A DNA stretch of 64,000 bases, taken from positions 192,001 to 256,000 of the forward strand of contig CAXWPH010000015.1 in assembly GCA_963666055.2 (NCBI GenBank). The letters run 5' to 3'. Positions 26,226 through 47,379 of this stretch are shown one piece after another. The notes beneath the pieces were generated by a model that saw nothing but the letters and a program-made list of their open reading frames with translations, made no database searches and was not told the DNA's origin. The DNA is from Acidobacteriota bacterium (GTDB lineage: Bacteria; Acidobacteriota; UBA890; WLXD01). Within the stretch, counting starts at the first letter, position 1, and each line of letters starts with the position of its first letter. The translations under genes and the position numbers were made by a program.

Positions 26226-26558
26226 TCAGGACTTTGCAGATTTCTCTGCCGCCGGTTCCTCAGGGATCGCCTGGTACCTCACGCGTCCCTTCGTCTTGCG
26301 CCTCTTGGCCTTACCTGTATCTACGAGCTTCTCCAGCCCGTACACGATCGTCTGGTGGGCGAACTCTTGGCCCTGTTTGCTGAGGCTACGCTGGATTTCG
26401 GCCACCGTCATCGACTCGCTGCTGCTGCTTAACAACTCCACCGTCAGCTCGTAGATCCGTCTCCGTTTCGGATGCTGACGCCTCTTGCGGGCCTTCTTTC
26501 TGGCCGGCGCCTTCTTCTTCGCCGGCAACGTAGCCTTGGCCGACGTTGTGGGATCCAT
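26226..26558 (-). CDS. Basic winged-helix-like DNA-binding protein; start uncertain
   Basis: Lys/Arg-rich N-terminus, then MTVAEIQRSL..HQTIVYGLEKLVDTGKA..RVRY. Confidence 0.5.
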   Translation of the reverse strand: MDPTTSAKATLPAKKKAPARKKARKRRQHPKRRRIYELTVELLSSSSESMTVAEIQRSLSKQGQEFAHQTIVYGLEKLVDTGKAKRRKTKGRVRYQAIPEEPAAEKSAKS

Positions 26559-26639
26559 GAGAGAGGCGACGCTACAGCAACCGGGCAGGTCTGCCAGCGT
26601 CGCCTTCAGCCGCCGGTTTTCCAGCTCCGTGAAAGCCGT

Positions 26640-26878
26640 CGCCCCTTGTTGACATCCATTCCGCCGTACTGGCAGATCAGCTGGACGTTGTCGTGGTCCC
26701 AGAAGCGCTCGGGCGCCAGGTGGGCGGGCTCGATGTGGTCGAGCTACTCGGCGGCGACCTTGAAGCCTGCTTCGGCGCAGGGACGGCACAACGGTTCATC
26801 GCGGAGGATTCCGGCGCGCCACGTGCGATAGCGGCGCGTCCAGCGCAGACGGCGGAGTGCTTCGGGCTCGATCGACAT
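26640..26878 (-). pseudogene. Phage packaging-type HNH endonuclease remnant (copy 1)
   Basis: WRAGILRDEPLCRPCAEAG..AE*LDHIEP..FWDHDNVQLIC, with an internal TAG. Confidence 0.82.
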
Positions 26879-27094
26879 TTTCGTTCGTGCCCATTTCGTG
26901 CCAGGCCACGAAGGAGGATCAACACCATTATTGTCAATGACTTATGCGGTGTTCCGTAGGACGGAGGACAGGGCCAAAAGACGCTCCTGGACAAATGGAC
27001 CCCTTCTTCACAACCCTACTGACGCCATTCCAATAAGACCGTACGCCTTTTTAATCAACGACTTAGCGTCTTCTTCAAAGCTTCTGGGGTTCGT

Positions 27095-27185
27095 CCCCGA
27101 AAAGTTCCTTTGCTTACATATCGCAAGGCACTGAGCGGTATCCGGGTGAGGGCCCTAGTTTACTTTGGTGGCCCCCCGTAAAATC
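27095..27185 (-). repeat. Conserved non-coding cos-like motif upstream of HNH (copy 1)
   Basis: GGGGGGCCACCAAAGTAAAC..GGATACCG..AGTGCCTTGCGATATGTAAGCAAAGGAA, homologous to 44395-44490. Confidence 0.6.
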
Positions 27186-27519
27186 CTTATTCCATTGATG
27201 TTAAGGCCTGGTGCAAGTGGCTGCATGCGTGTGGTCCTCGAGGGCTCGAAATCGCGTGACGAGCGCTCGAGCTCGAGAGTGGGGGCTCTATCTATGTTCG
27301 GTCAGCCCCCGACGCAGCGCACCGCGTAGCACGTCGCGGCTGACACCGTACTTGGCGGCGAGCGCGCGCTGACTCATGCCGGCGTCGTGATGGCGCACCA
27401 GGTCGACGGCCTGGCTGTCGTCGGGCTTTGTGAGCACCAGGGCCAGGTCATTACCGAACGAGGGCGTGCGTGTTTGTGAAACCGTGTGCGGCGCGTTAGC
27501 TCGCGCGCGAGTTGCGACG

Positions 27520-27640
27520 AGCCATCACCACGACGTACTCCGATGCCGGGCTCCCGGAAAGCGTCGAGGATGCCGCGCTGGAAGGGCCGCCAGTCGGTGC
27601 GCCACCGGTTGCCCGCCTGACTGCGCCCGTCACCACTACA
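27520..27640 (-). pseudogene. Lambda GpA-type large terminase N-terminal fragment
   Basis: RWRTDWRPFQRGILDAFREPGI / EYVVVM. Confidence 0.65.
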
Positions 27641-27642
27641 AC

Positions 27643-27693
27643 CAGCACCGAGTTACTGAGATAAGACGTGGTACTAACCGTGGGGTCAGGTCA
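27643..27693 (+). mobile_element. Solo right end of the IS3 at 16768-18027
   Basis: 51 bp identical to the reverse complement of 16768-16818. Confidence 0.9.
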
Positions 27694-27821
27694 GCCGCGG
27701 CCACCTCACAAAAAAATCTGCTCAGCAAAGCAAATAAGCCTACATTGAGGCGCGAATTCAGCGGATTCTGTGCGCTCAGGACCGTGCGCCATGCTCTCAG
27801 GTGCACGAGGAGGATTGGAGG

Positions 27822-29912
27822 ATGAGGATCTTGTCGCCCCTGCGTCCGCTGATGGCGCCGTTGTTGTCCGCGGCTTTATTGGCGCCGCTTCTCAGCACGA
27901 CGGCGCGCGCGGCACCGATACGAGATCCGGCCCAGCAGGAGCAGGAAGAGCAGCAGCAGGAGCAGCAGACGACCAACATCCAAGAGGTCGTCGTTGTAAC
28001 GGCGTCGCGCACCGAGGAGCTGTTGCTGGAGGCACCGACTGCGATCACCGTTATCGCCGCCGCCGACATCGCGCTGAGCGCGGCGCAGAACTACGCTGAC
28101 CTGATGCGCGGCGTGCCTGGACTGAACGTCATCCAGACGAGCGCTCGGGATGTCAGCATGTCGTCTCGCTCGTCCACCAACACACTGGATGCATCCCAGT
28201 TGGTGCTCATCGACGGGCGGACCGTGTACCTGGACTTCTTCGGGTTCGTCGCCTGGGACCTGTTGCCGCTGGATTTCTCCGAGATCGAGCAGATCGAGGT
28301 GATTCGCGGTCCGGGATCGGCGGTCTGGGGAGCCAACGCTCTTAGCGGCGTAGTGAACATCATCACCAAGTCCCCGAGGCAGTACGGCAACGCATTCCGG
28401 GTGCGCATGGGTGGCGGTGAGCGCGGCACTGGATTCGCCTCGATCACCTATTCGGGCATACGCGGCAAAACATCATTTCGGGTGACCGGGGCCTATTCAA
28501 CGCAGGATCCGTGGGACCGACCGGGTCCGTTGCCCAACGGCATCTCGCGGGATACGTTTTCGAATCAGGGCTCCCGACAACCGAAGTTCGACTCCCGTGT
28601 CGATGTTGACACGGGAGTCGACTCGTACTTGTCGCTTTCCGCCGGTGTCGCCGGCACGGGCGGCACGATCCACTCCGGCATTGGCCCATTTTCGATCTTC
28701 GACGGCATGACCTTCTCGTACGCGCGTGCCGATTACAACTGGCGGCTGTGGAACTTTCGGGCCTACGCTAACTTCGTCGACGGCGACTCCCTCAACATAC
28801 TGAACGGACTGCCGTTCAATTTCAGGACCCAGACCTACGATTTTTCGGCTACGAACACGTCGCTTCTCGGGCCGCATGCAGTCACCTACGGTGGAAACTA
28901 TCGCAAGCTGAGCTTCGACCTGTCGATTGCCCCAGGGGAGGACAATCGTACCGAGGGAGGGAGCTTCGCCACCTTCGATCTCGATATCAATGACTACGTG
29001 ACGATCAACGCCGGAGTTCGAGGCGACTATTTTGATGTCATCGACGGCGCGGTGACTTCGCCGCGCGGGGCGATTCTGTTTCACCCGGCCGGATCATCAA
29101 ATCACGTGATCCGCGCCGGCTTCGGTCGTGCCTTCCGAGTTCCCTCGCTGGTCAATAGCTACCTCGAGGTGGAGATCTTCAACGCCGTCAACGTGGGCCC
29201 ACCGATCGGGCAGATCGTCTTTCCGACCACTGCCGTGGGGAATCCCGAACTGGTCGAGGAGCGGCTGGATCAGTTCGAGATCGGCTACCGCGGCTCGGTG
29301 GCGAACGGCAAGTTCTCCTGGGACATCGCTGCCTACCGCACCGAGACCAAGGACAGCATCGACTTCTACACCAGCGAGACGTATACGGCCTTCAACCCAC
29401 CTCCAGACTGGTCGCTGCCGACGTTCCTGTTGCCGCCCTTCGGTCCCGTGGCGTTGCCGGCGCTGTTCACCTACCGCAACATCGGCGAGATCGTGAATAA
29501 GGGTTTCGAGGTCAGCTTGCGATACCTTCCGATGGCGCGCAATACGGTGATGGCCAACTACTCGTATCAGGCCGAGCGCGAGGTCAAGGGCATCCCTGAG
29601 CAGGACATCGGGATCTCGCCAGAGCACCGCTTCAACGTCTCGTACAACGGCTGGAGCGGCAATCTGTACTACGGCGCTTCCGTCAATCACGTCGGCGAGG
29701 CTTACTGGACGGATGTCCTAGACTCCCGCTTCTGGGGCACTACCGAGTCCTACACGACGCTCGACACGACGCTCGGCTACATGTTCCTCGACGGCACGGC
29801 AGAGGCTTCAGTGCGCGCTACGAACCTCACCGACGTCGGCGTGCTGCAGCACATCTATGGCGACATCATTGGTCGGCGCGTGGTGTTTGAGCTGTCGGTC
29901 AGCATCAGATAG
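27822..29912 (+). CDS. TonB-dependent receptor
   Basis: GGAGG RBS and signal peptide; EVVVVTASR, LVLIDGRTVY, IEVIRGPGSAVWGANALSGVVNIITK, GNPEL. Confidence 0.93.
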   Translation: MRILSPLRPLMAPLLSAALLAPLLSTTARAAPIRDPAQQEQEEQQQEQQTTNIQEVVVVTASRTEELLLEAPTAITVIAAADIALSAAQNYADLMRGVPGLNVIQTSARDVSMSSRSSTNTLDASQLVLIDGRTVYLDFFGFVAWDLLPLDFSEIEQIEVIRGPGSAVWGANALSGVVNIITKSPRQYGNAFRVRMGGGERGTGFASITYSGIRGKTSFRVTGAYSTQDPWDRPGPLPNGISRDTFSNQGSRQPKFDSRVDVDTGVDSYLSLSAGVAGTGGTIHSGIGPFSIFDGMTFSYARADYNWRLWNFRAYANFVDGDSLNILNGLPFNFRTQTYDFSATNTSLLGPHAVTYGGNYRKLSFDLSIAPGEDNRTEGGSFATFDLDINDYVTINAGVRGDYFDVIDGAVTSPRGAILFHPAGSSNHVIRAGFGRAFRVPSLVNSYLEVEIFNAVNVGPPIGQIVFPTTAVGNPELVEERLDQFEIGYRGSVANGKFSWDIAAYRTETKDSIDFYTSETYTAFNPPPDWSLPTFLLPPFGPVALPALFTYRNIGEIVNKGFEVSLRYLPMARNTVMANYSYQAEREVKGIPEQDIGISPEHRFNVSYNGWSGNLYYGASVNHVGEAYWTDVLDSRFWGTTESYTTLDTTLGYMFLDGTAEASVRATNLTDVGVLQHIYGDIIGRRVVFELSVSIR

Positions 29913-30106
29913 TGATGGCATGGTCCGACTCACCAGTCGGGCTCGGGGATCACCTTGCCCGCTACCGATCTGGACGATCGGTGGTGTGGGATGGGCCTGT
30001 CATGCTAGCGATGCTACACTCGGCGCCGCACCACAGAAATGGGCGAGGCTAGGGTTCCTCGTGGCGTAGGAATGAGACCCCGCCGCTGAACCAGGAGTGA
30101 ACGTTT

Positions 30107-31104
30107 ATGCGCAAGGCAAGTGTTGTGTTCACCGCAGCCGTTCCGACGATCGCCGTAGCCGCGCTTGTGATCGCGGGGCTCGACGTTCGCCCGTTGAGGG
30201 CAGGTGACCACTTCGACTCGCCCAGCGTCCTCAAGGACGGCCGCACTGACATCGGCGATGTCTACATCTTCCCGGCCCAGAAGAAGAAGAGAGAAACGAC
30301 GCTGATCATGACCGTGGCCCCGCTCGCGGGCCTATTGAGCCCGGCGGAGTTCAACGACGAGGCCCACTACATCTTCAACTTCGACAACGACGGAGACTTC
30401 AAGGTCGACCGCCAGTGGGCGGTGGCCTTCGATGGTGACAACATGCAGTTAGCCTCGATGGCGTAGAGATGGGCTCAGGCTCATATGGGCGGCGGCCAAT
30501 CCGGCTCGACGGCGGCGGGCGGGCGAATGCAGGGATGTTCGACGATCCCTTCTACTTTGATCTGCTGGCGGCGCAGAACGGGCTGGCGTTCTGTCCGGGG
30601 GGTGTGGGTTTCGACTTTTTCTCCAACGCCAACGTGATGGCGATCATCCTTGACATACCGAACGGCAGCGTCGGGCTAGATGTGCTGCCCGGGGTGAACT
30701 TCTGGGGCTCAGTGCAGATAGGTAACAAGCAGATCGACCGCATGGGCCGTCCGTTCATCAACCTGTTTTTGGTGGGGCCATTGAAAAAGAACCAGAACGC
30801 CTTCAACAAGAACAAGAGGCCCCACAACGACCCCAAGAGGTTCGGCACGGTGGTCAACAACAACGTGATGGCGCTCGGCGCCGACGAAGCGACCGCCGCG
30901 GTGCTGGTGGCCGCGCTGCTGCCCGACGTGATGCAGTACAGTCGGCAGGCAGAGAGTATGTTCCCGAACGGCCGCGGGCTCGCTGACGACGTTGCCAACA
31001 TCACCCTGGCGTTGTTGACAAGCAACCCGGCAGCGACCGACTGCGTCGACGGCAACGACGGGGAGTTCTCCAAGAAGTTCCCGTACCTCGCCGCCGCCCA
31101 CTGA
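30107..31104 (+). pseudogene. DUF4331 family secreted protein, frameshifted near 30450
   Basis: AGDHFDSP, DIGDVYIF, DDPFYFD, QIDRMGRP, FPNGRGLADDV, FPYLAAAH; the two halves are in different frames. Confidence 0.82.
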
Positions 31105-31109
31105 CCGGG

Positions 31110-32068
31110 CGAGATGAAAGCCGCCGACCGCCTCCCGAAACAAGATCCCAGAATGCGCTGAGATCCCAGGCGGCGAGCCGCTCGGCACGTTTCGCTTCTT
31201 CAACCGCCCATTGCTCGAACGAGCTCGTATAAGTGTCGATCCAGTCCTCATGCCCGCGCGCTTCGGCCAGCATCAGGTTGTAGAGGAGGCTGGCTCCGTG
31301 CATGACCTCCGAGAAGATCCGCGCGTGTTTCAGCTGCCGCCGGATGCGCGTTGGGAACTCCGCCGCTGCCACGTGCTCCCAGGCAAAGCCCACGCGATCC
31401 CAGGGCTCTTCCACCTGGTCCACGAGGTGGGCCAAGAGCGTGCAGGGTGCTGCGCTCAGGATGCGCTCCCGCAGATACTCGGCCTCACTGAATCGGAGCC
31501 TAAGCTCGGCGCCCTCCGGAAAACCAGCTGGCGGGTCAGGGATGTGTGGATGCCAGTTGGTGGGCTCCGGGCTTGAAGCTTCGTTTTCACGATCACGCGC
31601 TTGACGACCCTTGAGTCGAACATAGAACTGGTCGAGGCTGCGGTGGTATTGAGCCTGGGATCCCTGAAACTGCAGAATCCCCCAACGCCGAAGCCCCGCC
31701 CAGTAGACGCTGCTAGGCATCCGCTTCACGGCTGCTCCTGCCTCGCCGCCGATGACACCTTTGACGTCGTCGCTCTCAGAGAGGTGCTTGATCAGACGTC
31801 CTTCGGCGCGGCGGAAGCGAATCCCGATGCGCGAGCTCCGCACCGCTCGCCGCTCGAAGTCACGACACATCCAGGGGATGAAAAGGAAGTACCGGGCGCG
31901 GGTCTGGATCGTCGTCGTGCCAGGGAACAGCAACTCGGCCAACGGGTCCCGAACCCCTGCCAGGCCGAGCTCGTCGCGCGTGTCACGTATCTGGAACAGC
32001 GAGATGACGTCGAGCGCGCGGCGTCGCTCCTGTTCCGAATAATCCAGCCACGCGAAGCTAGAAGTCAT
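31110..32068 (-). pseudogene. DUF6361 protein (Azaca ZacA-like defence component), C-terminally truncated
   Basis: FAWLDYS, RDELGL..VRD..LFPGTTTIQTRARYFLFIPW, PSSVYWAGLRRWGI; the tail runs antisense into DUF4331. Confidence 0.75.
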
Positions 32069-32164
32069 CGCCTCAGATCCGTCTAGGCTCCGGGAAAGGC
32101 TGCCGTCGATTGACCCTGTCTTTCGGAGCGGCGCTGATGCCGGTTCGGTGGCTCGAACTCCATC

Positions 32165-32248
32165 TGAAGCGCAGATGGTACCAGCCGCCCTTGTTGAGCA
32201 CTTGGGCTGTCGGGTTGTCCTCGTGGAGCCGCTGCATAATCATCACGT
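32165..32248 (-). pseudogene. Fragment resembling a phage large terminase motif
   Basis: VMIMQRLHEDNPTAQVLNKGGWYHL. Confidence 0.5.
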
Positions 32249-32299
32249 GCGCTGCGCCCCTCGAAGCTCCGCGCGTCGAGAGCGTCTGACTGGCGCGGC

Positions 32300-32362
32300 C
32301 CTGACTTTCGATGCCCCCGGTTGAACAGGCATACGCAGGTGCGCGGAGACGCCGGCCGGCGG
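32300..32362 (-). repeat. cos-like motif (copy 2)
   Basis: CCGGCGTCT..CCTGTTCAACCGGGGGCATCGAAAGT, homologous to 40320-40375. Confidence 0.55.
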
Positions 32363-32638
32363 CCGACCAGAGGCAGGGTAAGCGCAAAACGGCCCGCGAG
32401 ACGCTTCAGCAGCGTATACACAGGCGAAAACCTCGGGCGGTGATGCGGGATCCTCCCCCATTGTGGCTGCGTCTGTCGGGGTTGTGGAAAACCTCCACCC
32501 GGACAAGACAAGAATCCGGCGCGCTGCCAGCGCTCAAGAGCTAACGATCTCCTCCAAGAGCGCTCTGGTCGATGAACCGCAGTCCAACCGCCGGCACGCC
32601 GCGGGTCCGAAACCACCGCCGTGGGCCGTGCGTTCGCT

Positions 32639-33007
32639 CTAGAACGCGATCGCACCTGCCCTCAGCAGATTGGTCAGGTGGGCAACCACGTTCGACTTCC
32701 GTCTCTTGAAATAGAAAACTCGTCCTTGCTCATTGTCGCTCACGTGATAGCAATTCCAGCGCTCCAGCCCCATGTCATTGAGCCGTCTATCCAAGTCCTC
32801 CAGATCAGCGTTTGCTACCTTGAGTGACGTGTACTCGATGGCCCAGAGGTCCTGGAGCTCTTCTGCCGACAGGTCACGCAATTCGCCTGCCCTCGTCCGC
32901 GCGTCATCAATTATCTCCTGAGCATCCTCTCGCAACTCAGCCAACGGAGCCTGCTGACACCCGACAGAAAGCACCATCATTGACACGACAATTCGTATGG
33001 TTCGCAT
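32639..33007 (-). CDS. Small lipoprotein with a DUF4177-like C-terminus
   Basis: LSVGC lipobox; EY..LDRRLNDMGLERW..FYFKR. Confidence 0.65.
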   Translation of the reverse strand: MRTIRIVVSMMVLSVGCQQAPLAELREDAQEIIDDARTRAGELRDLSAEELQDLWAIEYTSLKVANADLEDLDRRLNDMGLERWNCYHVSDNEQGRVFYFKRRKSNVVAHLTNLLRAGAIAF

Positions 33008-33037
33008 ATCGTTCTCACCCTATGTAGCCAGTGACAG

Positions 33038-33144
33038 TGACCTGACCCCGCGGTTAGTACCACGTCGTATCTCAGTAACTCGGTGCTGACAAGAGGACGT
33101 TGAGGCCGGCGAAGCGGAACGCAGCCGGGTTCAACAACAGCGCC
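33038..33144 (-). mobile_element. Solo right end of the IS3 family seen at 16768
   Basis: TGACCTGACCCCGCGGTTAGTACCACGTC.. closely matches 16768-16874. Confidence 0.88.
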
Positions 33145-33174
33145 TTGATCGGCCCTCAGGCTCGCCCACAGAGC

Positions 33175-33450
33175 GCCACGTTCACTACCTGGAGCGGGTA
33201 TGCGTCGTGTGCCACGTGGTACGCCACCGGGTTGAGCACGATGCTCGTCTTGCCCCATTGGCTCGATTCCCATCACGACGACGTGTCGATGCCGGGCTCG
33301 CGGAAGGCGTCGAGGACGCCGCGTTGAAATGGCGCGTGTCGGAAACGGTCCGCTGGCGCGGCAGTTCGAGTGCGCGGGCCCAGAGGTCGCGGTGACCTCG
33401 AGCTCGGCGCGCACCGCCTTCGGGCCGCCCCATGTGCGCGGCTCGTGCCA
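33175..33450 (-). pseudogene. Second GpA-type large terminase fragment
   Basis: APFQRGVLDAFREPGID / VVVM / SSQWGKTSIVLNPVAYHVAHDAYPLQVV (Walker A region) across frameshifts. Confidence 0.68.
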
Positions 33451-33499
33451 CCCGGCTTGAGATCGTGGCCGGCCAGGCGAGCATGATCGTCTTGCAGCT

Positions 33500-33625
33500 G
33501 ATGGTGCGGTTCATCGAGGAGCATCGTGACGGCTACTCGGTTGAGCCGATCTGCGCGCAGGTGCCGATCCACCTCGTCCAGGTACTATGAGCACAAGAGT
33601 CGTCAGGCAGATCCCACGAGCGCAT
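33500..33625 (+). mobile_element. IS3-family orfB N-terminal fragment
   Basis: MVRFIEEHRDGYSVEPICAQVPI / SRYYEHK. Confidence 0.7.
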
Positions 33626-33936
33626 CGGGGCGGCACAGGAACCTCGCCGCCGCGGGCGCTTCCCTTGGTTGCAATGCAGGCCGGACGCTGACTCTCGCCC
33701 GCCATGCCGGCTCGCTACGCATGCGGACAGTTCGCTACCCGGAGCGCCGTGGCGCGGGTGCGCTTCGGGCCAATAGCGGTTGTAGGAGCGCGCGCGAACT
33801 GATGGCATGATGGCAGTCGCCGCCAGCCTTGCAATTGCGGCGAGCGTGCTACTCGCGAGCACTGCAATCTCGGCACAGGAGGACCTCAACGTGACGCTCT
33901 GCCCTTCCCCACCTTCGTAGCTTCACCCGACGCTGA

Positions 33937-34359
33937 ATGCCATACCGACCGATCTCGACGCGGCTACTCCGAGTAGAGGAATTCCAACGTGCCATCCAGG
34001 GGCTTCAAGTTGGCGACCGGTTGCGTATCACCAGCTTCGACGAAAGGCCTGTTTCGGCCGTAGTGTACACGCGCGGCGGGGGCTTCTTGGGAACGGGCCG
34101 CCAGGTCGGCTATCTGAGCAACGCAATTGCACGAAAGGTCGCGGAGTACGAGAGCAGTGGCGGGTTCGTCTATGCAGTAGTTACAAAGCGCTTGCCGCTG
34201 GGCGCTGAGATTGACGTTTGCTTCACTGACGATGTGGCCGAACTGATGCCCGCATCGAAACCGGGATACGATGCCGAGATCGCCGGCGGGTGCGGTTTCC
34301 TGCTGGTCTTGGTCGTCCTGGTCGTCCTGGTGACCGCGCTGCTGACCTGGGCCTGTTGA
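33937..34359 (+). CDS. HIRAN-like domain protein with C-terminal membrane anchor
   Basis: LQVGDRLRI..AVVY..RQVGYLSNAIA; hydrophobic tail. Confidence 0.6.
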   Translation: MPYRPISTRLLRVEEFQRAIQGLQVGDRLRITSFDERPVSAVVYTRGGGFLGTGRQVGYLSNAIARKVAEYESSGGFVYAVVTKRLPLGAEIDVCFTDDVAELMPASKPGYDAEIAGGCGFLLVLVVLVVLVTALLTWAC

Positions 34360-34449
34360 CGTGGCGTTCTCACGGTCGGCGGCCTCCGTGTCGCGGGATC
34401 CGGTGGCTTCAGGCAGCCGATCGACAGGCTATGGCGGTCATTCCAGATT

Positions 34450-34600
34450 GCTTCGAGAATCTTGTCCTTGTGAACGCGGATGGCCTCGAGCAACTCCGGG
34501 ATCGGAGGGACGTGGCACGGAGATGCAGCCTTCGCCCGCACGCGTGCATGCTGATGCCTTCCGTCCGGGCTCGTCGGATCAATCGCTCGGCGACACTCAA
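34450..34600 (-). pseudogene. TubC-N-like small phage/satellite protein, frameshifted
   Basis: SVAERLIRRARTEGISMHACGRRLHLRA / PIPELLEAIRVHKDKILEAI. Confidence 0.55.
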
Positions 34601-34688
34601 AGCGAAACACTCCACTCGGCATCTGCCTGAGCCGGTTCCGTGTTCGGGCCCGCTTTCTCGGCACTGTTCGCGGAAGGCATCCTTTCAA

Positions 34689-34754
34689 CCGGTACATCCG
34701 GTACAAGCCCTGTCGGCCGAGCATGGTCTGTACCGGCTGTACCGCTTGTACCGG
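34689..34754. repeat. Converging 9-bp-period repeats (putative replication-origin iterons)
   Basis: CCGGTACA twice, then TGTACCG(G) three times. Confidence 0.6.
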
Positions 34755-34811
34755 ATGAGTCGGTGCCGGTATGGGTGCAACTACCCTCCTCCGGGGCGTG
34801 GCGTTCCCACG

Positions 34812-35112
34812 CCTCGCGGTTCGCGACTGGCTCGGTAGGCTCGGCGTGGGGACGCTGTTGATCGAGCCGGGCTCGCCTTGGGACAACGGTTACGTGGAGA
34901 GCTTCAACGGCAAGCTCAGAGACGAGTTGCTGGATAAAGAGATCTTCTACACGCTCGCCGAGGGCAAAGGCCTTGGGTGCAGGGCTGGCGCCGTGAGTAC
35001 AACCAGGTGCGGCCCCATTGCTCACTCGGCTATCGGCCATCCGCACCCGAAATGACGTTGCCAGCTCCGATTCTATGAGTTACGAAACGGCCCAATCACC
35101 TGGGGCAGGTCA
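34812..35112 (+). mobile_element. IS3-family orfB 3' fragment and right end
   Basis: [38 protein letters not shown]; terminus GGGGCAGGTCA. Confidence 0.85.
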
Positions 35113-35278
35113 CAGTTCGATCCCAACCGCATTGGCGCCCTCAGCTGTTCGACCATCGCATCGCCTCCAGCAGCCCTTCGAGGTGCGCCATGCACTCGCA
35201 AATCCGGCGAGCACGCGTGGCTAGAATCTCAACCAACAGAATCAGTGACTTGCATGCCAATGTGGGAGCTGGCAGGCG

Positions 35279-39066: not shown

Positions 39067-39851
39067 GCGCATCCAAGCCGATCCGCGTTCTCGTTGTGGA
39101 TGACGAACAGCCAGGAAGGCAACGCCTAGTTGACTTGCTGGCTCAGCGGGGCGATTGCGAACTGGCGGTAGTCTGTTCGGATGGCAAGCTCGCTTCAGCC
39201 GCAATCAACGAGCATGCTCCAGATCTCGTCCTGCTGGATATCCAGATGCCAGGACTCAGCGGTCTCGAAGTCGTGCGGCGTCTGGGTGGCAACGCACCAC
39301 ATACGATCTTCGTCACAGCATATGCGGAGCACGCACTGACCGCCTTCGAACTGGCTGCCGTCGACTACATCCTGAAGCCTTTTACCGAAGATCGGTTCAA
39401 CGCCAGCGTTGATCGTGCGATCGAGCTGATCCGCTCGGCTCGGACAGGCGCTCGGCTGGCGACACTCCAACATCTGCTGAAATCGCGGGACGGGCGAGTT
39501 GACACTCACGACCGACCGTGGCCGCAACGCGTCGCTGTCGAGAGCCGAGGGAAGCTTCGCATTGTTGCCCTCAACGACGTAACCCACATCACCGCCGATG
39601 GCCCCTACGTGAACCTCCATGCAGGCGATACCACGCACTTGGTCCGTGTCCGGATCAAGGATCTGGAAACAAGACTCGATCCTCAGTCGTTCTGGAGAAT
39701 CCATAGGTCTACCATGGTGAACGTAGATGCGATCGAGTCACTGAACGCGCTGGGGGCCGGAGACTATGTCGTGCGCCTCAAGTCAGGCGAGGAGCTGCGG
39801 CTCAGTAGAACCTTCCGCGACGAGTTGTCGAGTCGCATGGCACTGCTATAG
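39063..39851 (+). CDS. LytTR-family response regulator
   Basis: VVDDE, LLDIQMP, FVTAY, DYILKP, FWRIHRS. Confidence 0.93.
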   Translation: MSASKPIRVLVVDDEQPGRQRLVDLLAQRGDCELAVVCSDGKLASAAINEHAPDLVLLDIQMPGLSGLEVVRRLGGNAPHTIFVTAYAEHALTAFELAAVDYILKPFTEDRFNASVDRAIELIRSARTGARLATLQHLLKSRDGRVDTHDRPWPQRVAVESRGKLRIVALNDVTHITADGPYVNLHAGDTTHLVRVRIKDLETRLDPQSFWRIHRSTMVNVDAIESLNALGAGDYVVRLKSGEELRLSRTFRDELSSRMALL

Positions 39852-39926
39852 CTGAGTCGCCGCCGCAGCGCGTCGATGGCATCGCCTCCAACGCCGGCAG
39901 CCTCGAAGTGATGGTTGGCGTGCCGA

Positions 39927-39989
39927 TCACTGGACGTCGGCGTCGCCTTGCCCGGCAGCCAGACGGTACCAGCAGACGGCGTCGGCATG
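39927..39989 (-). pseudogene. Single Sel1-repeat remnant
   Basis: HADAVCWYRLAAGQGDADVQ*. Confidence 0.6.
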
Positions 39990-39999
39990 GCTCCTCAGG

Positions 40000-40251
40000 T
40001 GTAGAGCGATCGCCCCGGCGTGCTTGCGCTCGTGGGCACTGCCGGCAGATCGGGTGGATGGTGTCGCGGTCCCAGAAGCGCTCGGGAGCTAGGTGGGCGG
40101 GTTCGATGTGGTCGAGCTGCTCGGCACCGACCGTGAAGCCCGCCTCGGCGCAGGGACGGCACAACGGCTCGTCTCGGGGGATTCCGGCGCGCCACCGGCG
40201 ATACCGGCGATGCCACCGCATTCTTCGGAGAGTTTCGGTCTCGGTCGGCAT
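40000..40251 (-). pseudogene. HNH endonuclease remnant (copy 2)
   Basis: EPLCRPCAEAGFTVGAEQLDHIEP..FWDRDTIHPICRQC, then a frameshift. Confidence 0.82.
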
Positions 40252-40261
40252 GCTCTCAGTC

Positions 40262-40375
40262 TAAATGTGTGTGTGTAAATGTACTGGGGGGCGACGGTAT
40301 CCGGGGGTCATGGGGCTGGAACTTCGATGGCCCCCCGTTGAACAGGAATGCCCGGGCATGGACAGACGCCGGCGG
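40262..40375 (-). repeat. cos-like motif (copy 3)
   Basis: CCTGTTCAACGGGGGGCCATCGAAGT..CCCGGATACCG..CCCCCAG, immediately upstream of the HNH start. Confidence 0.6.
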
Positions 40376-40569
40376 TACCTTTCACCGACTCGGTCGCTGG
40401 GACCCGTCGAGCGACTTCACGAGATCTGCTACTGGAGCGGACGGGACGCCCCGCCCGGCGTCCCCGTTGCAAGTAGCGCCGACGGCAAGTGAGCACCGTG
40501 CCCGCTACCCGTCCCCCCGGGACGGTGCGCTTCCAATGTGCTGCGTCGACGGGATCTCGTCCCCAGGGC

Positions 40570-42517
40570 TCAATTCACGCCGCCTTCACTTGTCTGGCGC
40601 AGTGCAGCGAGCACTCGCTCGGGCGTGAACGGTGTTTGATACAAACGGATTCCCACCGCGTCGTGGATGGCGTCGGCGACGGCCGGCGCGATCGCCGGGC
40701 AGGGCATCTCGCCGACACCCCGTGGACCGTTGTTCGGGTACGCCTGCAGCCAGGCGATGTCGATCTCGGGAGTGTGACGAAAGCTGGGCACTTCGTAGTC
40801 GCCGAACACACGCGCATGGACCTGATGGCGATCGGCGACGAGATTCTCCACCAGGCAGTATCCGATGCCCCACATGATCGCCCCGCGGACGTTGACGGTG
40901 CAGTTGCGCCGATTGATGACCGTACCAATGTCAAGTGCACAGCAGACACGCTTTACCCGCACGACTCCCGTCTTGCGGTTAACCTTGACCTCGACGAAGA
41001 AGACCCCGAGCTCGCGCGCCCCGTGATTGATGACAGACACACCGAGCCCGTGATCCGGCTGCCGCATGTACGTGCTGTACCGGATCAAATCGGCGCCTGA
41101 ACTCAACAGCTCGTTGAACGCTTCGAGCTGCACGTTGCGTCTTCGGAACTCGACCCGGTCGATCCCGGCCAGCTCCGCTAGATGGCTCATGTGGCTCTCC
41201 ACTGCGAAGCTGACCTGCATGAAGCTAGTACCGCGGACCACCGCGTGGCGCAAAGGCAGCTGGGTCTTGTACAAACGCGTGCGCGAGTTGGGCACCTTGT
41301 AGGTATCCAGCGTGCCGTGACCCGTGTCGTTGATGATGTCGATGTGACGGGTATCAATGGTGCCGTCGGCATTAAGGGTGCTGCTGATATCGATCACACA
41401 CGGCTCTTTGGCGCGCGCCCGGCCGACGAACTGGTCCGCACGGCTGTAAACGTACTTCACCGGCGCCCCGGCAAACCGCGACAGCTCCGCCGCCTCGCCG
41501 CCGACGGTGTTGGAGATCTTGCCTCCGTAGCCCCCGCCAACAGGCATGCCGGCCACCCGCACCTTGCCCGCACCTAGGCCGAGGCGCCGAGCGATCAAGG
41601 CCCGTTGCAGGTGGGGTCCCTGGCTTGCCACCCACACGGTGGTGCCGTCCAGCCGCACGTCAGCGACAGCGCTGTCAGTCTCCAGCGGTGCTTGCGTGGT
41701 GAAGTGCGTGATGTACGTTTCGCTCAGGCGCACGCCGCCACCGGGTCCAGGAGCATCGACATTCCCTATATTCTCGATCTCGGTGACCAGTTGAGCGCCC
41801 CGACGGATGTCGCGTTCGAGATTGAGCTTGGCGCGGCCCGGAGGCTTGCGCCAGCGAGCGGTGATTGCCTTCAACCCCAGCTCGACGGCGTGGTAACTGT
41901 CGCCGATCACTGCGGGGCGGCCACGGACGATTCCTACTTTGGCTACTCCGGGCACCGTACGCGCCCTGTCCAGGTCAGCCGAGATAAGAGGGCTCAGGTG
42001 CTCGTGATACGGCGACCGAAGGTATGCACCGTACAGCAGCCCGCCGGGACCGAGATCTCCGACATACTGCTGCGCACCGGTCACGATGTCGCGAGCCCGG
42101 ACATCGTCCAGACCTCTGTCCACGTACGACCCGGACAGCTCCTGGCGCGCTGGCGGCTCCAAGTCCACGAGCACGACACTGGAGACAACCAGCTGGCTCA
42201 TGCCCACGGTCATGCTCGGGTCTGAGGCCGACACGACACCGCCGCGCCGGACCTGGACTTGCTCCGGGTCCAGTCCCAGAATCTCTGCCCCGGCCCGCCG
42301 CAGCGACATCGAAGCGGCCAGCGCAGTTTGCCAAAACCCCCATCCCACCTGCTGTGTGGCACTGCTGCCCTCGGTAGTTCCATCGTCCGGACACAGCTCT
42401 GTGTCGCCCATCACCACGTCGACTGCCTTGGGCGATATCTCGAGTGCCTGGCTGACGAGGGCGACGATGACTGTCTCCAGACCCTGGCCGATCTCGGTGA
42501 TCGCCAGGCCCGGGAAT
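40570..42517 (-). pseudogene. Xanthine dehydrogenase-family molybdopterin-binding subunit, probably N-terminally truncated
   Basis: EIGQG, VMGDT, VGGGYGGK, GAIMWGIG, GVGE, GIRLYQTPFTPERV; no start or partner subunits upstream, where an IS end lies instead. Confidence 0.8.
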
Positions 42518-42588
42518 CAGACGATCAGCAGCACGGATCGCCCGACTAGAGAGTCTCTACCGCTTCAATGCCCAACCCTTGGGCAAAA

Positions 42589-42636
42589 CACCGAGCCACT
42601 GAGACAGGACGTGGTATTAACCGTGGGGGCTGGTCA
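42589..42636 (+). mobile_element. Diverged solo IS3 right end
   Basis: caccgagccactgagacaggacgtggtattaaccgtgggggctggtca aligns with 27646-27693. Confidence 0.78.
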
Positions 42637-42677
42637 GTCTTCGTCCAGGCTTGAGCACACAGGGGAGTATTCGAGCG

Positions 42678-43373
42678 ATGTTTTTCTTCGATCCGACGTA
42701 TCTGGTGTTCATCCTACCGGGATTGGCTCTGTCGCTCTGGGCAAGCTTCCGCACGAAGTCGGCATTCCGGAAATATTCGAAAGTGCGGTGTGCGCGCCAC
42801 CTCACCGGCGCCCAGGCCGCCCGCCTCATGCTCGACCGCGCAGGGCTGCACGACGTGAGCATTGGGCGGTCACACGGCGTACTCTCGGACCATTACAATC
42901 CGGCCACGCGCCGCTTGGCATTGTCGAAGGACGTCCACGATGCCGCCTCGATTGCGGCGATCGGCGTGGCCACGCACGAAGCCGGCCATGCCATACAGCA
43001 TGCGGCCCACTACGCCCCCCTCTGGCTGCGGAGCACACTCGTGCCCACGGCCAACATCGGTTCGTCGATCGGCTACGTCGTGATGATGATCGGACTGTTT
43101 ATGGCATCGCAGTCTTTGGTGGCCGTTGGCGCGGTCCTGTTCTCGGCGGTCCTTCTGTTCCAGGTGGTGACTCTTCCCGTGGAGTTCGATGCCACCGCTC
43201 GCGCCAAGAAACTCGTGGTGGAGTACGGGATAATCAGTGAGCACGAGCGGGCGGGCATGGACCGCGTGTTGAACGCCGCCGCGCTCACCTACGTGGCCGC
43301 CGTGGTCAGCACGCTCCTGACCCTGCTCTACTTCTTGATGCGGGCTGGCTTGCTAGGCGGCCGGGACGACTAA
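42678..43373 (+). CDS. YugP-family neutral zinc metallopeptidase
   Basis: LSDHYNP, VATHEAGHAIQH, TLPVEFDA, AAALTYVAA. Confidence 0.92.
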   Translation: MFFFDPTYLVFILPGLALSLWASFRTKSAFRKYSKVRCARHLTGAQAARLMLDRAGLHDVSIGRSHGVLSDHYNPATRRLALSKDVHDAASIAAIGVATHEAGHAIQHAAHYAPLWLRSTLVPTANIGSSIGYVVMMIGLFMASQSLVAVGAVLFSAVLLFQVVTLPVEFDATARAKKLVVEYGIISEHERAGMDRVLNAAALTYVAAVVSTLLTLLYFLMRAGLLGGRDD

Positions 43374-43430
43374 CGGTGCTTTCCGAGTAGGTTGTTCACA
43401 TCGGGGCCTTCTGAGACCAATGGGGTAACC

Positions 43431-43505
43431 GGGACCAACCTTGGTGTGCCCATTGCGGTGCTGCCACCGCGGATCTTCCGCGTCGGCGCCAGCGTGAGTT
43501 TCTGA
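43431..43505 (+). pseudogene. C-terminal remnant of a TonB-dependent receptor
   Basis: GTNLGVPIAVLPPRIFRVGASVSF*. Confidence 0.55.
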
Positions 43506-43659
43506 GGCGCACCGTGCTGATCTGAGCTGTCGGGTCCGGGCGGGTGGCGGCGTCCCATCGTGTATCGCGGCCTGGCCTCTCGGCTCCTACCTGAGCGAGC
43601 CCGCATGCGCGTCGGCGGGGGAGGTGCAGAACTCGGGATTGGCGGGGCCGATTCCAAGA

Positions 43660-43775
43660 CCCGGTACGAAGAAGCTGCTCCAGGAGAGAAAGCAGATCGA
43701 AGAGGAATTCGGTGACAGTCTTACCTGGCACAACGCCGAGAACGCTCAAGCGTGCCGAGTGTATGTTCAGAGGGG
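43660..43775 (+). pseudogene. DUF4268-like fragment
   Basis: LLQERKQIEEEFGDSLTWHNAENAQACRVYV. Confidence 0.55.
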
Positions 43776-43811
43776 CACCGTGATCCGTACTGCCCTGCGG
43801 CGGGCCTCCCG

Positions 43812-44060
43812 GCGGAGCGCATCCACCAGGAAGAGCTGTCGATCCGCGTCAAGCGCCGCTGCAAGTGGAACGAGCCACAGGCGAATGTCGCTGCCGGCTC
43901 TAGCGCGCCGAACGAGCGCTGGAGCATGGCCTTCATCACCGACCAACTGCACAGCGGCCGCTAGTTCCCCATGGTGACGGTCGTGGATCACTTGACTCGT
44001 GACTGCCCGGTGCTGGAGGCCGGTGTGTCGATGAGCGGGCAACTAGTGGCAACGTGCATA
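43812..44060 (+). mobile_element. IS3-family orfB fragment
   Basis: APNERWSMAFITDQLHSGR*FPMVTVVDHLTRDC. Confidence 0.75.
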
Positions 44061-44199
44061 AGCGTCTGTCGGTGCAGCGGCCCGTCACTGAAGGGCTGGC
44101 CGGCGAGTGGACACTCGGTGATGGTCAGCTTCTCGAGTCAGTAGATGGATGCGGCGCGGACTCGGGGCCCTCGGAGCGGCAGCGGGAGTCATTTGCCCG

Positions 44200-44385
44200 C
44201 CAGCTCGACCAGATGTGGTCGATGTGCTCCGCTGCGACCGTGAATCCCGCTTCGGCGCAGGAACGGCATAACGGCTCGTTCCGGAGGATTGCGGAGCGCC
44301 ATCGCTGGTAGCGGCCGCTCGATCGCATCCGGCGGACGACTTCGGGATCTGTCGGTGTTTTTCGGGGTCTCATTCTCGTGGACAT
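44200..44385 (-). pseudogene. HNH endonuclease remnant (copy 3), truncated after DHI
   Basis: RYQRWRSAILRNEPLCRSCAEAGFTVAAEHIDHI. Confidence 0.8.
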
Positions 44386-44394
44386 AATATGCTC

Positions 44395-44490
44395 AAAATT
44401 TTCCGTTGCTTACAAGTCGTAAGGCACTCGACGGTCTAGAGTGGTAGCCCGCCGTTTACTTTGATGCCCCCCCCCCCCCCCCCCCCTAAA
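44395..44490 (-). repeat. cos-like motif (copy 4) with an expanded G20 tract
   Basis: G20-CATCAAAGTAAAC..AGACCG..AGTGCCTTACGACTTGTAAGCAACGGAA. Confidence 0.6.
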
Positions 44491-44886
44491 CGACTGTGCC
44501 CTATAGGGTTACGCGGGTGGACGGACGGCGCTAGAGCGCGCGCGAGCGTGGGCCCATAAATGCGTGTTAGGGGCTCGAGATCTCAGCAGCGTGGTGGTGG
44601 CCAGCTGGCGCAGTCGGCGCGCGGTGGTGGCCTCGACGATCGCCCCTGTACCACATGTACCACGTGGTCCTGTTTTGGACGTATGGGCGCGGGCCCCCGT
44701 CGTAGGTGGTGCAATATTCGAGGGCCTGGGGATCTTCTCGCCTAGTGTGGCTCCAGGCGGAGCGCGAGGCCCATAGCGCCCTAAGTGGGCCTCGAGCGCG
44801 TTAGGCGGGCCCGTGGTGGCGCACCACTCGGCGCGGCCGGTGGTGGTGTGCCGATGTGGTGCTCGAGCGCCGGCGCGAACGCCTAA

Positions 44887-45243
44887 TCAGATGGTCTCTA
44901 CCGCCTCGATGCCAGCGGCCTCTAGCAACCGCTTGACCAGCCAGCCGAGTTCCCCGCCATTGTCCTGTGTCAGCGCATCCACGACCGCGCTCTCGTCGTC
45001 GCACACGTAGGCGGCGAAGCAATCGAGCTCGCCGTCCCGACGAGAGCGGCCGACGACGTGTAGCACGAACGGACGCGGGCCGCTCGCCGACGCGCAGCGG
45101 TACAGCGCGAGGCTCGTTGACGCCGAAGCGCTTGCGGTCCGCGCACGATGCGTGGCATCCGCCCTCCGCATCAGCTTCGTGGCATGCAACGCCATGCCTG
45201 CCGACTCTTGCTCTACGTACTCACGTACCGTCAGCGGCGCCAA
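44887..45243 (-). CDS. Hypothetical protein of the satellite-like element
   Basis: 118-aa ORF overlapping the end of the primase-like gene. Confidence 0.45.
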   Translation of the reverse strand: MAPLTVREYVEQESAGMALHATKLMRRADATHRARTASASASTSLALYRCASASGPRPFVLHVVGRSRRDGELDCFAAYVCDDESAVVDALTQDNGGELGWLVKRLLEAAGIEAVETI

Positions 45244-47177
45244 AAACTCCTCGGGCTACAACGTCGTAGGCTCCCAGCTCGGGGACCTCGACCCTCTTCA
45301 CGCTTGGTGTTGGCGCCGAGCGTGCCGAGCGCGGTACCAGTCGACTCGCCTGCGCCGGTAGGCGGTCGCGGCAGTTGTTCGGGCGGCGCTCGGCGGCCCG
45401 CGATCGCTTTGTCCCCGGCAGGCGTGTCGGCGGCGAGTGTGTGTGGGGGAGTACTCCTGTCGGACCGTACCCTCTTCGGGTCATTATGTGTACCCAAAAA
45501 CCTCATGTGCGCCATGGGGAACTCAACGATGCTCCTGTGCTGCATGGGGAACTCGATGATGCACCCGCGCGCAGGCTCGGCAGCCGGAGCATTGGCTAGA
45601 GGACCTGGTGCAAAGCGCCGGCAGCGGTGCTCAAGGCGATCGGCTTCGCGTTCGATCCGGAGCCAGCCGAGGCGCACGGCGCGTTCGATCGCTGGTTTAC
45701 ACCAGCGCGGCGTACCGACCAACGCGCGCAACGTCGAGGCCGGCACGTCGGGTCGCCCTTGCCGGCACCGGGCAAGCGTATAGCCGACGACGCGCCGGAA
45801 CGCGCGCCGCAATGCCCGGTGTGGCATCTCGGCCGCGTCCGCCTCGAGCCGGGAGCGCACGTCGTCAGGCAGCTGCTCGAGCTCGGCTGCGGCGATCTCC
45901 CGGAGCTTGTGAGGCATCGGCATCATGGCCTCGGTCGCGGCGGGGTTGCGCAGCAACTCGGCGCCGCGTGCGTAGGATCTCGTGCAGTCGGCTCGCCAGC
46001 CGCGTAACTCGGCCCACGTGGCGCCCTGGAACGTGATCGCGTCGAAGGCGGTGAGCGTTGCATCCAGGTCGAGGCCCACGGCGTGCGCGAAGTGCCCGAT
46101 GGCGCGGGCGGTTGCATTGCGGTAGCCCGGTTCCACCGATCCGGAGCGCAGCAGTTGTGCGATCTCGCGCGGTCGATCCCAAGCCAGCGGCCCGACGGAT
46201 CCGAAGCGCGGCCGCTCACCGCCCGCGGCTTCCGCGAGCTCGTTCCGCTCGGCGCGTGCCTCGGCCGCGGCTGCGATCGCCTCCAGCGGCGATGGTGCCC
46301 GATTTAGGCAGGTCTCCGCACCCGGACCTGCGGCGAAGGATCCGCGAGTGTCCTGCGCCATCCTCGGGACACGAATCGGACACCTGCGCACCCGGAGCCG
46401 GTCGCAGTTGCCGCGCAGCTTGAGAATCGAGCGCAGCTGCTCGGCAGGCGATTCCTTAAGCTCCGCACCCGTGACAGGGTCGAGCCGGGCGGCGTCAAGG
46501 CCGGCCGGTAGACGACAAGCACCCACCAGGATCTCGCACCACTGCCCCGGCGGCGCCCCCGGCTTGGCGCGCAACAGACGCCGCACGTGCTCGGCCGCCT
46601 CGTCCGCCGGCATCGGCCGATCCAGCAGCACGTATACGTGCATCGATTGCTCGCGGTTGCAACTCGGCCGCGTGGCGAACCACACGGGCACGCCGGCGGC
46701 GCGGATCTCGCGCAGCGCTTCGTGTCGTGTCTCCGGGTCGCAGAGGTGCCGTGGCCCGTCGTAGTCGATCACCAGGTGACGAACGCGCCCACGCGCATCT
46801 TGCAACGGCGCGCCGAGCACCAGCTGGTGCAACCAGTGAGCCGCGGCGAGCGGCGGCAAGATCACCAGCCCACGGTGCCAGGACACTTCCTTGTTCCATT
46901 GGCCGCGACTGTCGCGGATCGTCTGAAAGAACCTCGAGGCCGCCGAGGTGTCGTCGCCGACGTGCGGTACCAGCTGGAGCAGCGCTTCGGTTACCAATTC
47001 CGGCGTCAGCTCCGCGGCGAAGCCCTCCGGCCACCGGTGCGGAAAGCTCGGCAGCCGCGCCAGCACTGCCCGCGGCAGCACGGCGCACAGGCCGCCCGTG
47101 AGCTCTGGGTGCTGGTGCTCTAGGTTGCGTAGGCGCCGGTAGCGCGTCGGCAGCCGCGATGGCCAGCACGGAGACAA
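45231..47177 (-). CDS. AEP-like primase/replication initiator with PriCT-like and winged-helix regions; start uncertain
   Basis: LVIDYD, SMHVYVLLDRP, CRLPAG, PGYRNATA, wHTH-like TLRALVG..AIERAVRLGWL. Confidence 0.62.
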   Translation of the reverse strand: MSPCWPSRLPTRYRRLRNLEHQHPELTGGLCAVLPRAVLARLPSFPHRWPEGFAAELTPELVTEALLQLVPHVGDDTSAASRFFQTIRDSRGQWNKEVSWHRGLVILPPLAAAHWLHQLVLGAPLQDARGRVRHLVIDYDGPRHLCDPETRHEALREIRAAGVPVWFATRPSCNREQSMHVYVLLDRPMPADEAAEHVRRLLRAKPGAPPGQWCEILVGACRLPAGLDAARLDPVTGAELKESPAEQLRSILKLRGNCDRLRVRRCPIRVPRMAQDTRGSFAAGPGAETCLNRAPSPLEAIAAAAEARAERNELAEAAGGERPRFGSVGPLAWDRPREIAQLLRSGSVEPGYRNATARAIGHFAHAVGLDLDATLTAFDAITFQGATWAELRGWRADCTRSYARGAELLRNPAATEAMMPMPHKLREIAAAELEQLPDDVRSRLEADAAEMPHRALRRAFRRVVGYTLARCRQGRPDVPASTLRALVGTPRWCKPAIERAVRLGWLRIEREADRLEHRCRRFAPGPLANAPAAEPARGCIIEFPMQHRSIVEFPMAHMRFLGTHNDPKRVRSDRSTPPHTLAADTPAGDKAIAGRRAPPEQLPRPPTGAGESTGTALGTLGANTKREEGRGPRAGSLRRCSPRSFWRR

Positions 47178-47379
47178 ACCCGCCGCGGGGTTGTCGATCG
47201 CTGCGGCGGCGCCAGGATTCTCATTACGGCTTGGTGTCCAGCATGACCACGATCCAGTCGTTCCTAAACTGGGTCTCTGGTACCCATGAGTTCTTGTCTG
47301 GTATTGTGTCTGTAATTGTATGCACCTTGAGATCGTGTCTTGGTATCTTGTTTCATTGCAACGACTTAGAGAAAATAAG

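Follow-up and report, generated by a model that had tools for sequence, protein, structure and literature searches.

The region from 26226 to 47379 of the 64,000-nt window (the whole stretch of Acidobacteriota DNA that we analyzed) is best read as a decayed mosaic island, consisting mostly of broken mobile-element copies. We put the probability at about 0.55 that this is a mosaic of PICI-like satellites, likely captors of the cos-HNH cassette of a helper phage.

The unit that recurs spans ~450 bp and consists of an HK97-type cos-like site followed by a gene for a predicted HNH nickase. The window's own genome assembly (G000, with contigs C7, C10, and C15) contains 11 cos-like sites and 10 HNH loci, and the copies in the window are the following:

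44380..44508, minus strand: cos-like site 1 (G-run, AAAG, ACCG, A-tract)
44212..44385, minus strand: HNH copy 1, cut after the first His
40277..40358, minus strand: cos-like site 2, 3' part degraded
40018..40251, minus strand: HNH copy 2, with an altered C terminus and its core in a single open frame
32290..32339, minus strand: cos-like site 3, truncated before ACCG, without HNH
27093..27196, minus strand: cos-like site 4
26630..26878, minus strand: HNH copy 3, internal stop

Consistent with the initial annotation, the three minus-strand HNH genes are homologues (75 to 83% identical over 138 nt), and all four of its noncoding G-run motifs were found, the one at 32.3 kb in truncated form. An intact HNH copy in the relative G002 exceeds the PF01844 cut-off. 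Among 27 units, a total that counts G000/G002 orthologues twice, the HNH core is in one frame in only 8 and ACCG is retained in 20, one of which is mis-anchored. Upstream of cos, several units have unrelated cargo or IS. A motif profile, scanned genome-wide in G000 and in fetched stretches only of G002 and G003, had no match in the reversed genome; because it was built from HNH-linked copies, its HNH-linked matches arise partly by construction. In a quick HNH tree of 118 rows that included every second viral locus, 36 of 41 family rows formed one group (support, 89), and the family was placed neither nearer satellites nor nearer phages. When viral and metagenome contigs were scanned for HNH, the matches were distant HNHs only, with best-segment identity mostly 33 to 54%. 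A terS-HNH fusion, considered on account of an RPRKTP-like N terminus, was dropped because relatives are without that N terminus.

The earlier proposals that the G-run marks a cos-like site and that the HNH is of a terminase-associated type were borne out. Of 76 viral loci with related HNH genes, 28 had a loose, island-derived pattern ≤400 nt downstream of the gene (4.7% when shuffled), whereas upstream it occurred in 0 of 79; the window order is reversed relative to these loci, with the cos-like site upstream of HNH. The HK97 and D3 records terminate just past a G-run..ACC plus a GC-rich 9-10-mer. Cutting at HK97 cos leaves 10-nt 3' overhangs and is promoted by gp74 (PMC9410871), and phage HNHs of the HK97/gp74 kind nick AC^CG (PMC3592412). 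No viral contig matched the exact motif pattern, and nhmmer with the island motif missed phage cos regions, including that of the G200 prophage described below, which leaves the loose pattern and inspection as the basis of the cos call. Small viral contigs showed no enrichment of the loose pattern, either upstream of TerL (5 of 69; shuffled, 8.4%) or around HNH (2 upstream and 1 downstream of 77).

Remnants of two other terminase types lie in the window:

33183..33344, minus strand: frameshifted N-terminal remnant of GpA large terminase (PF05876, 27.8 bits, over the cut-off)
27522..27597, minus strand: second GpA remnant, 81.6% identical over 76 nt to the 33183-33344 copy
32166..32291, minus strand: fragment of a Terminase_6-like TerL, a third terminase type (45% to the TerL of L048, E 1e-5)

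The two GpA fragments thus cover the same region, as first annotated. Besides G000, we examined 23 fetched G002/G003 stretches; handles such as L035 and L048 denote loci of relatives. GpA was accompanied in the loci examined by Nu1-like terS and by replication genes other than AEP, and AEP and GpA never occurred in one element of G000 or the 23 stretches. The native terminase of cos-HNH is an HK97-type TerL (phrog_9), into which HNH continues in L037, L044, and L045. PF03354 had no match in five genomes of the genus, though divergent TerL remnants exist, and PF20454 is absent from G000. Behind lambda-type Nu1/GpA, cos-HNH would make no single working motor, so at least this junction probably arose by recombination.

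The anchor and replication modules of the island are as follows:

47380..47477, minus strand: tRNA-Ser(cga), the island anchor
47220..47379, minus strand: att-arm-like linker joined straight to the AEP gene, without an integrase
45519..47219, minus strand: conserved part of an AEP-PriCT-HTH-like replication protein of an orphan family, frame open to 45231
34600..34815, minus strand: 3' end of a CHC2-DUF3631 primase gene, which an IS3 remnant truncates at 34816
34401..34597, minus strand: TubC-N-like ORF remnant

The AEP-like ORF adjoining the tRNA gene, noted initially, has AEP-TOTE/PriCT proteins as Atlas neighbors (0.94-0.97). Its top Foldseek matches are all AEP folds, at E values of at least 3.5e-3 with a pLDDT-51 model, and it had no match in Pfam or PHROG. 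A word search found 9 relatives and a full HMMER search 6, all at least 85% identical and therefore giving no outside context for the gene; a contig scan added 3 marginal matches among 25 candidates. G000 has the same att-arm/AEP fusion behind tRNA-Ser(gct), and G002 has it at three sites; such a replicon would need an integrase in trans. Downstream of the AEP gene lies cos-HNH, terS-terL(Terminase_6), or a terS-like gene (G000 and the 23 stretches). The iterons (34689-34754; three direct and two inverted 7-8-mers) and TubC-N-like ORF annotated at 34.5 kb are present, the ORF as a remnant; the iterons belong to a second, unrelated primase of the DUF3631 type and not to the AEP. An intact G003 homologue of the TubC-N-like ORF matches PF18563 at E 0.0047, below the cut-off.

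All three modules found upstream of the cassette, the integrase-less AEP replicon at tRNA-Ser, the DUF3631 primase with iterons, and Nu1-like terS with GpA, occur in PICI-like int-xis-rep islands of the genus, and these islands support the involvement of PICI-like satellites that had been proposed. Furthermore, cos-HNH stands directly behind PICI-like left arms at four loci. L045 carries, within ~6 kb, int, a regulator, xis, the CHC2-DUF3631 primase, iterons, TubC-N, cos, and an HNH remnant, with ~600 bp of probably foreign DNA between TubC-N and cos. In L036 of G002, the TubC-N-like ORF joins a cos of the 32.3-kb type directly. L035 has AEP, cos, and an intact HNH at the window's tRNA, and C7 has int, a helicase, Nu1-like terS, a GpA remnant, cos, and HNH. 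The cassette, which matches the start of the packaging region of a tailed, HK97-like temperate phage, likely follows three unrelated modules because several PICI-like islands captured it for packaging by that phage. None of the recovered elements was complete with an att site at either end.

The window itself retains part of what defines a PICI. A primase-replicase with ori is represented by the AEP-like ORF and the DUF3631 tail with iterons, and the cos-like site is a candidate helper packaging signal. Direct att repeats flanking an element are absent from the window, and no integrase lies at the att site within 26.2-47.4 kb; related elements (L045, L048, and C7) have one. Regulators in the window are limited to stray HTH ORFs, with no match for AlpA; L045 and L048 encode a xis-like HTH and a regulator. 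The window does not hold the cf-PICI set of own capsid, protease, portal, connectors, TerS, and TerL. No tail, holin, portal, or connector gene was found among the scanned window ORFs, and PF04860 is absent from G000.

The remaining features of the island are the following:

44887..45195, minus strand: small ORF, also upstream of several other cos-HNH units
40525..44213: cargo block with a molybdopterin-binding dehydrogenase subunit and a Zn peptidase, sharing 99% identity with C15:1711.6-1718.2 kb
42589..42637: isolated IS3-family end, matching the terminus of the IS3 element at 16768-18028
33620..33810, plus strand: C-terminal part of a Cre-like tyrosine recombinase, a remnant with 78% to its intact counterpart in L048
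33038..33145: IS3-family end
27643..27693: IS3-family end at the boundary of a block that shares 99% identity with C7:26848-27434
27292..27471, minus strand: small HTH ORF
26226..26570, minus strand: winged-helix ORF behind HNH copy 3, with weak HTH family matches

The tRNA-Ser(cga) site is unoccupied in the relatives G001, G003, and G004, the empty-site comparison suggested at the outset. The initial view that no recent duplication was involved was not confirmed: three window blocks (27109-27695, 40525-44213, and 46911-47408) match other parts of the assembly at ~99% identity, and several such blocks have IS3 ends as boundaries.

A possible donor of the cassette is represented in a distant genome, G200, by an intact tailed prophage with the order cos-like site, HNH, TerL, portal, capsid, and tail. 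Its HNH matches the cos-HNH family at E 2e-48 and its TerL at 57%, and no terS was recognized beside its cos. For seven of the nine best full-length TerL matches, the contig equals in size that of an HNH match, which is indirect evidence. This closest intact homologue found partly bears out the initial annotation's own caveat, that intact homologues might prove to be full-length prophages. The main rival explanation is accordingly plain prophage debris: a G200-type phage integrated repeatedly and decayed, cos-HNH survived by chance, and deletions joined satellite replication genes to it as neighbors. Besides the tailed homologue, TerL 5' ends after HNH in three units, the broken state of most HNH copies, and scattered G200-type remnants in G000 (one TerL, one portal, and one capsid/protease, the sole capsid remnant being on C10) agree with this explanation. 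However, cos-HNH outnumbers any other gene of such a phage in G000 by ~ten to one, and no phage tail match was found there at E ≤ 1e-8. Together with the four junctions to PICI-like left arms, this leaves debris an unlikely, though serious, alternative. Head, tail, and lysis genes follow cos-HNH in the G200 homologue but not in the window.

Less probable still is a selfish cassette whose HNH would nick ACCG in packaging regions of incoming phages or satellites, with repair copying cos-HNH in. Such spread would account for the GpA, Terminase_6, and HK97 TerL fragments that each abut some copy, and homology between copies mostly begins 0-130 nt before the G-run and often stops at the HNH stop codon. 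The cassette nevertheless keeps its own nick site intact, unlike what is known of homing endonucleases, no target-site repeat was seen, and recent duplications are bounded by IS3 ends rather than by the cassette. The initial model, in which a single satellite family (primase, GpA, cos, HNH) entered the tRNA-Ser site four times, is largely refuted and very improbable: every window part is co-oriented and in three places (27 kb, C7, and L037) a GpA remnant precedes cos-HNH, but AEP and GpA share no element in the loci examined, the window has two different primases, the att-repeat search found no partial tRNA-Ser repeat between its four units, and the native terminase is of HK97 type.

Under the preferred reading of satellites that captured a helper cassette, helper induction would lead to satellite excision, and replication from the satellite's own primase and ori would yield concatemers that present a helper-type cos. 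The satellite's HNH would nick the conserved ACCG, and the helper's terminase would make the other cut and fill helper heads. Deletions, IS3 activity, and recombination between islands would then have broken up the elements and left their pieces stacked in one orientation behind tRNA-Ser. A more specific version, which we regard as tentative and rather doubtful, is that these are islands with interchangeable replicons, carrying no more than the helper's cos plus an HNH nickase of their own, that parasitize siphophages with the order cos, HNH, TerL and without terS in its usual place; with no small terminase there, the HNH may itself supply packaging specificity.

The cos-type PICIs (EcCICFT073 and SaPIbov5; PMC6092414, PMC10085698) similarly combine int, regulator/xis, primase-rep, ori, and helper-type cos without head or tail genes, and HNH is occasionally found in PICIs too (PMC10085698). 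In contrast, the position behind cos that terS takes in HK97 is filled here by an HNH of the element's own, no AlpA, Rpp, or Ccm was identified, replication and terminase modules are freely interchanged, and the window copies are broken. The cf-PICIs (10.1101/2022.09.08.507074) likewise have HNH with HK97-type TerL, but the window is without portal, capsid, and connector. More distant TerL relatives (≤43%) lie on IMG/VR contigs of ~10 kb that also encode integrase, capsid, protease, and portal; TerL precedes HNH in 70 of their 77 loci, and their head proteins had no match in G000 at E 1e-5. Phages of the HK97/D3 type with gp74-like HNH share the cos architecture and HNH class (PMC9410871, PMC11331095, PMC3592412) but have HNH, cos, terS, and TerL in that order, as opposed to cos, HNH, and TerL here. 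Tycheposons and VEIMEs (10.1101/2020.12.28.424599, PMC9618062) are comparable tRNA-anchored islands of modular int-rep elements and remnants, some VEIMEs carrying HNH; tycheposon stacks have partial tRNA copies between elements, which the window does not. The literature listings searched described neither the order cos, HNH, TerL nor a satellite with only cos-HNH.

Intact relatives are more useful than the window, which is itself mostly wreckage. If the preferred reading holds, the G200 prophage points to a phage family with HNH in the terS position, making the role of gp74-like HNH in cos recognition testable with three parts (cos, HNH, and TerL). The capture of a helper's cos together with an HNH would then be another route by which satellites exploit HNH-dependent cos phages.

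Between 26.2 and 47.4 kb of the window, the parts of the minus-strand island behind tRNA-Ser(cga) (47380-47477) were all present where the initial annotation had placed them, and we favor reading them as a decayed mosaic of PICI-like satellites that probably captured a cos-like site and its HNH nickase gene from a helper phage. A profile of the G-run motif found 11 sites in the genome of the window (G000, with the window at C15:192001-256000), 10 of them with an HNH remnant directly after; the reversed genome gave no hits. Homology between motif copies usually began 0-130 nt ahead of the G-run, and the consensus ran G5-6, AAAG, ~22 nt, ACCG, ~18 nt, TGTAA, an A-tract, a TAnnnT-like box (by eye, a putative promoter), and the HNH start.

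The closest phage HNH genes are positioned just upstream of terS/terL. A loose pattern derived from the island motif occurred downstream of HNH in 28/76 viral loci and upstream in 0/79 (2 and 3 on the opposite strand; 4.7% in shuffles), and the HK97 and D3 records end immediately past a motif-type ACC and GC-rich run. Published accounts describe HK97 cos as having 10-nt 3' overhangs with cutting promoted by HNH gp74 (PMC9410871), an A-tract 15-29 bp past the cut as the TerS binding site (PMC11331095), and AC^CG as nicked by several cos-phage HNHs (PMC3592412). The ACCG nick site is retained in 20/27 units, one of them mis-anchored. The pattern counts, record ends, and published properties together support the earlier proposal of a cos-like site and suggest a homologue of HK97-type cos with the HNH nick site kept, although the island site precedes HNH and that of HK97-type phages follows it.

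In one stretch from G002 (L037) and two from G003 (L044 and L045), HNH leads directly into the 5' end of an HK97-type large terminase (phrog_9). A search of 401 phylum genomes, with full-length relatives as queries, matched nine, and of six loci fetched, one, from G200, carried the close HNH (E 2e-48). Its order is cos-like site, HNH, TerL (57%), portal, ClpP-type protease, capsid, connector, holin, and neck, followed by tape measure, distal tail, tail fibre, Sak4, and an integrase past the tail genes adjoining tRNA-Lys. Replication genes lie just upstream of cos, and no terS was recognized between cos, HNH, and TerL. This gene content is that of a tailed temperate phage.

Prophage of G200
L367 4000-14100 and L373 500-20000 (G200:C1 ~5.165-5.198 Mb)

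Three of the other five loci read TerL, HNH, capsid and two read TerL, capsid with HNH not detected; they resemble more distant IMG/VR contigs of ~10 kb (median 9.9 kb, n=80; TerL before HNH in 70/77) that look like cf-PICIs. A large set of such ~10-kb elements (L368-L372 from G366, G209, and G263; L264; L271-L350) has the order TerL, HNH, capsid, protease, portal, and complete genomes of this phylum are among them.

The HNH family was found in 3/41 relatives (G000, G002, and G003, all one genus) and 3/26 class genomes; among homologues further away are proteins whose names point to Ca. Palauibacter. Only 8/27 units have the HNH core in one frame, which weakens all functional readings. G000 has ten HNH loci, whereas what is left of other G200-type phage genes comes to a single remnant each of TerL, portal, and protease/capsid; the tail genes had no match there. 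Plain prophage debris alone would account for the TerL stubs behind HNH, but it leaves unexplained both this ten-to-one cos-HNH excess and the recurrent rep-cos-HNH junctions, and we consider it unlikely. That cos-HNH is a self-spreading cassette fits worse and is distinctly improbable.

The rep modules of the favored satellite mosaic are diverse. The AEP-like primase (AEP) is joined to an att-arm-like linker, and this fusion stands behind tRNA-Ser(cga) at one G000 and two G002 sites, behind the tRNA-Ser(gct) of G000, and at a further G002 site with only ~10 nt of the tRNA end left. Downstream of AEP lie cos and an intact HNH (L035), HNH alone (L033), or a terS-like gene (L049 and L050). On G002 C9 (L048 6439-12980), int, regulator, xis, AEP, terS, and a Terminase_6 TerL with an internal stop occur with no HNH. 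From the 3' end of AEP, 87 bp (window 45550-45636; L035 10669-10755; G000 C7:33917-34009) recur directly behind HNH in C7, L035, and L039, possibly as a recombination hotspot or concatemer junction.

At 34.4-34.8 kb, the iterons together with the TubC-N-like ORF do not belong with AEP but make up the 3' part of a CHC2-DUF3631 primase module, so that the window contains two unrelated primases. In G003 (L045) this module is intact: int, regulator, xis, primase, iterons, TubC-N, ~600 bp, cos, and an HNH remnant. TubC-N is joined to cos in G002 L036, and the counterpart cos in the window is 2 kb apart, at 32.3 kb; the two junctions share a 9-mer. GpA is partnered by a Nu1-like terS that is fused to a nuclease, along with a replicon of HTH or helicase type (L052, C7, and C13), and a GpA stub lies upstream of cos-HNH in C7. 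In three capsid-less islands the Nu1-like terS upstream of GpA carries a fused endonuclease domain (phrog_16945) at its N-terminus. Further int-xis-primase-TerL islands of G000 (C14 and C6) showed no head gene, neither capsid nor portal, in the ORFs that were scanned; C6:327.3-328.9 kb has a third TerL copy.

Nu1-like terS fusions
L052 10126-11331
L007 8979-10292
L001 16886-18058
Apparently intact int-xis-primase-(terS-like)-TerL islands
L253 3300-10700 (G000 C14)
L255 8200-16600 (G000 C6)

The initial annotation's single family, ordered primase, GpA, cos, HNH and integrated four times, is very improbable: it fits worse than prophage debris, and AEP and GpA never shared an element among the loci examined. 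Its exclusion of recent duplication also failed, since 27109-27695, 40525-44213, and 46911-47408 each have a ~99% identical counterpart elsewhere in G000, some of which may reflect strain mixture in the assembly; ends of IS3-family elements account for the 51-nt repeats at 27643, 33038, and 42589. The tRNA-Ser(cga) region is present twice in G002 as well. Three relatives (G001, G003, and G004) have this tRNA-Ser(cga) site empty. The genes downstream of it in G003 and G004 have their G000 counterparts at C15:2.07 Mb, behind the second AEP stub, indicating that G000 is rearranged between tRNA-Ser ends. Window blocks match at least four separate G002 places, and no partial tRNA-Ser copies occur between the four window units, unlike in tycheposon stacks (10.1101/2020.12.28.424599). 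These observations argue that the stack is a mosaic assembled by recombination and does not record successive integrations in order of age.

Other features in the window
33937-34359, plus strand: intact ORF of 140 aa, ending in a hydrophobic helix
31001-32068, minus strand: truncated DUF6361 gene
13320-14349: frameshifted integrase close to the left island edge (~13.1 kb)
18220-18309: tRNA-Ser(gga); another copy, 90% similar, is at C15:2008 kb

The 140-aa ORF had no match in Pfam or PHROG and looks HIRAN domain-like; the DUF6361 family occurs in defence islands. ARAGORN called one tRNA-Pyl(cta) and two tRNA-SeC in G000 (C5:65608-65685, C6:7932-8029, and C13:66090-66187), and one tRNA-SeC gene is the integration site of a Nu1-GpA island.

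No att-bounded complete element was recovered in the loci examined, which likewise weighs on all functional readings. In the literature searched, we found neither the order cos, HNH, TerL nor a satellite with cos-HNH alone described. Published accounts name HNH as an occasional PICI gene (PMC10085698) and as present in some VEIMEs (PMC9618062), and the EPIP gene set is unlike that of the window elements (PMC12822802). Because integrase and att repeats are lacking in the window elements, we file them as remnants rather than PICI members, elements that we read as having worked like cos-type PICIs.
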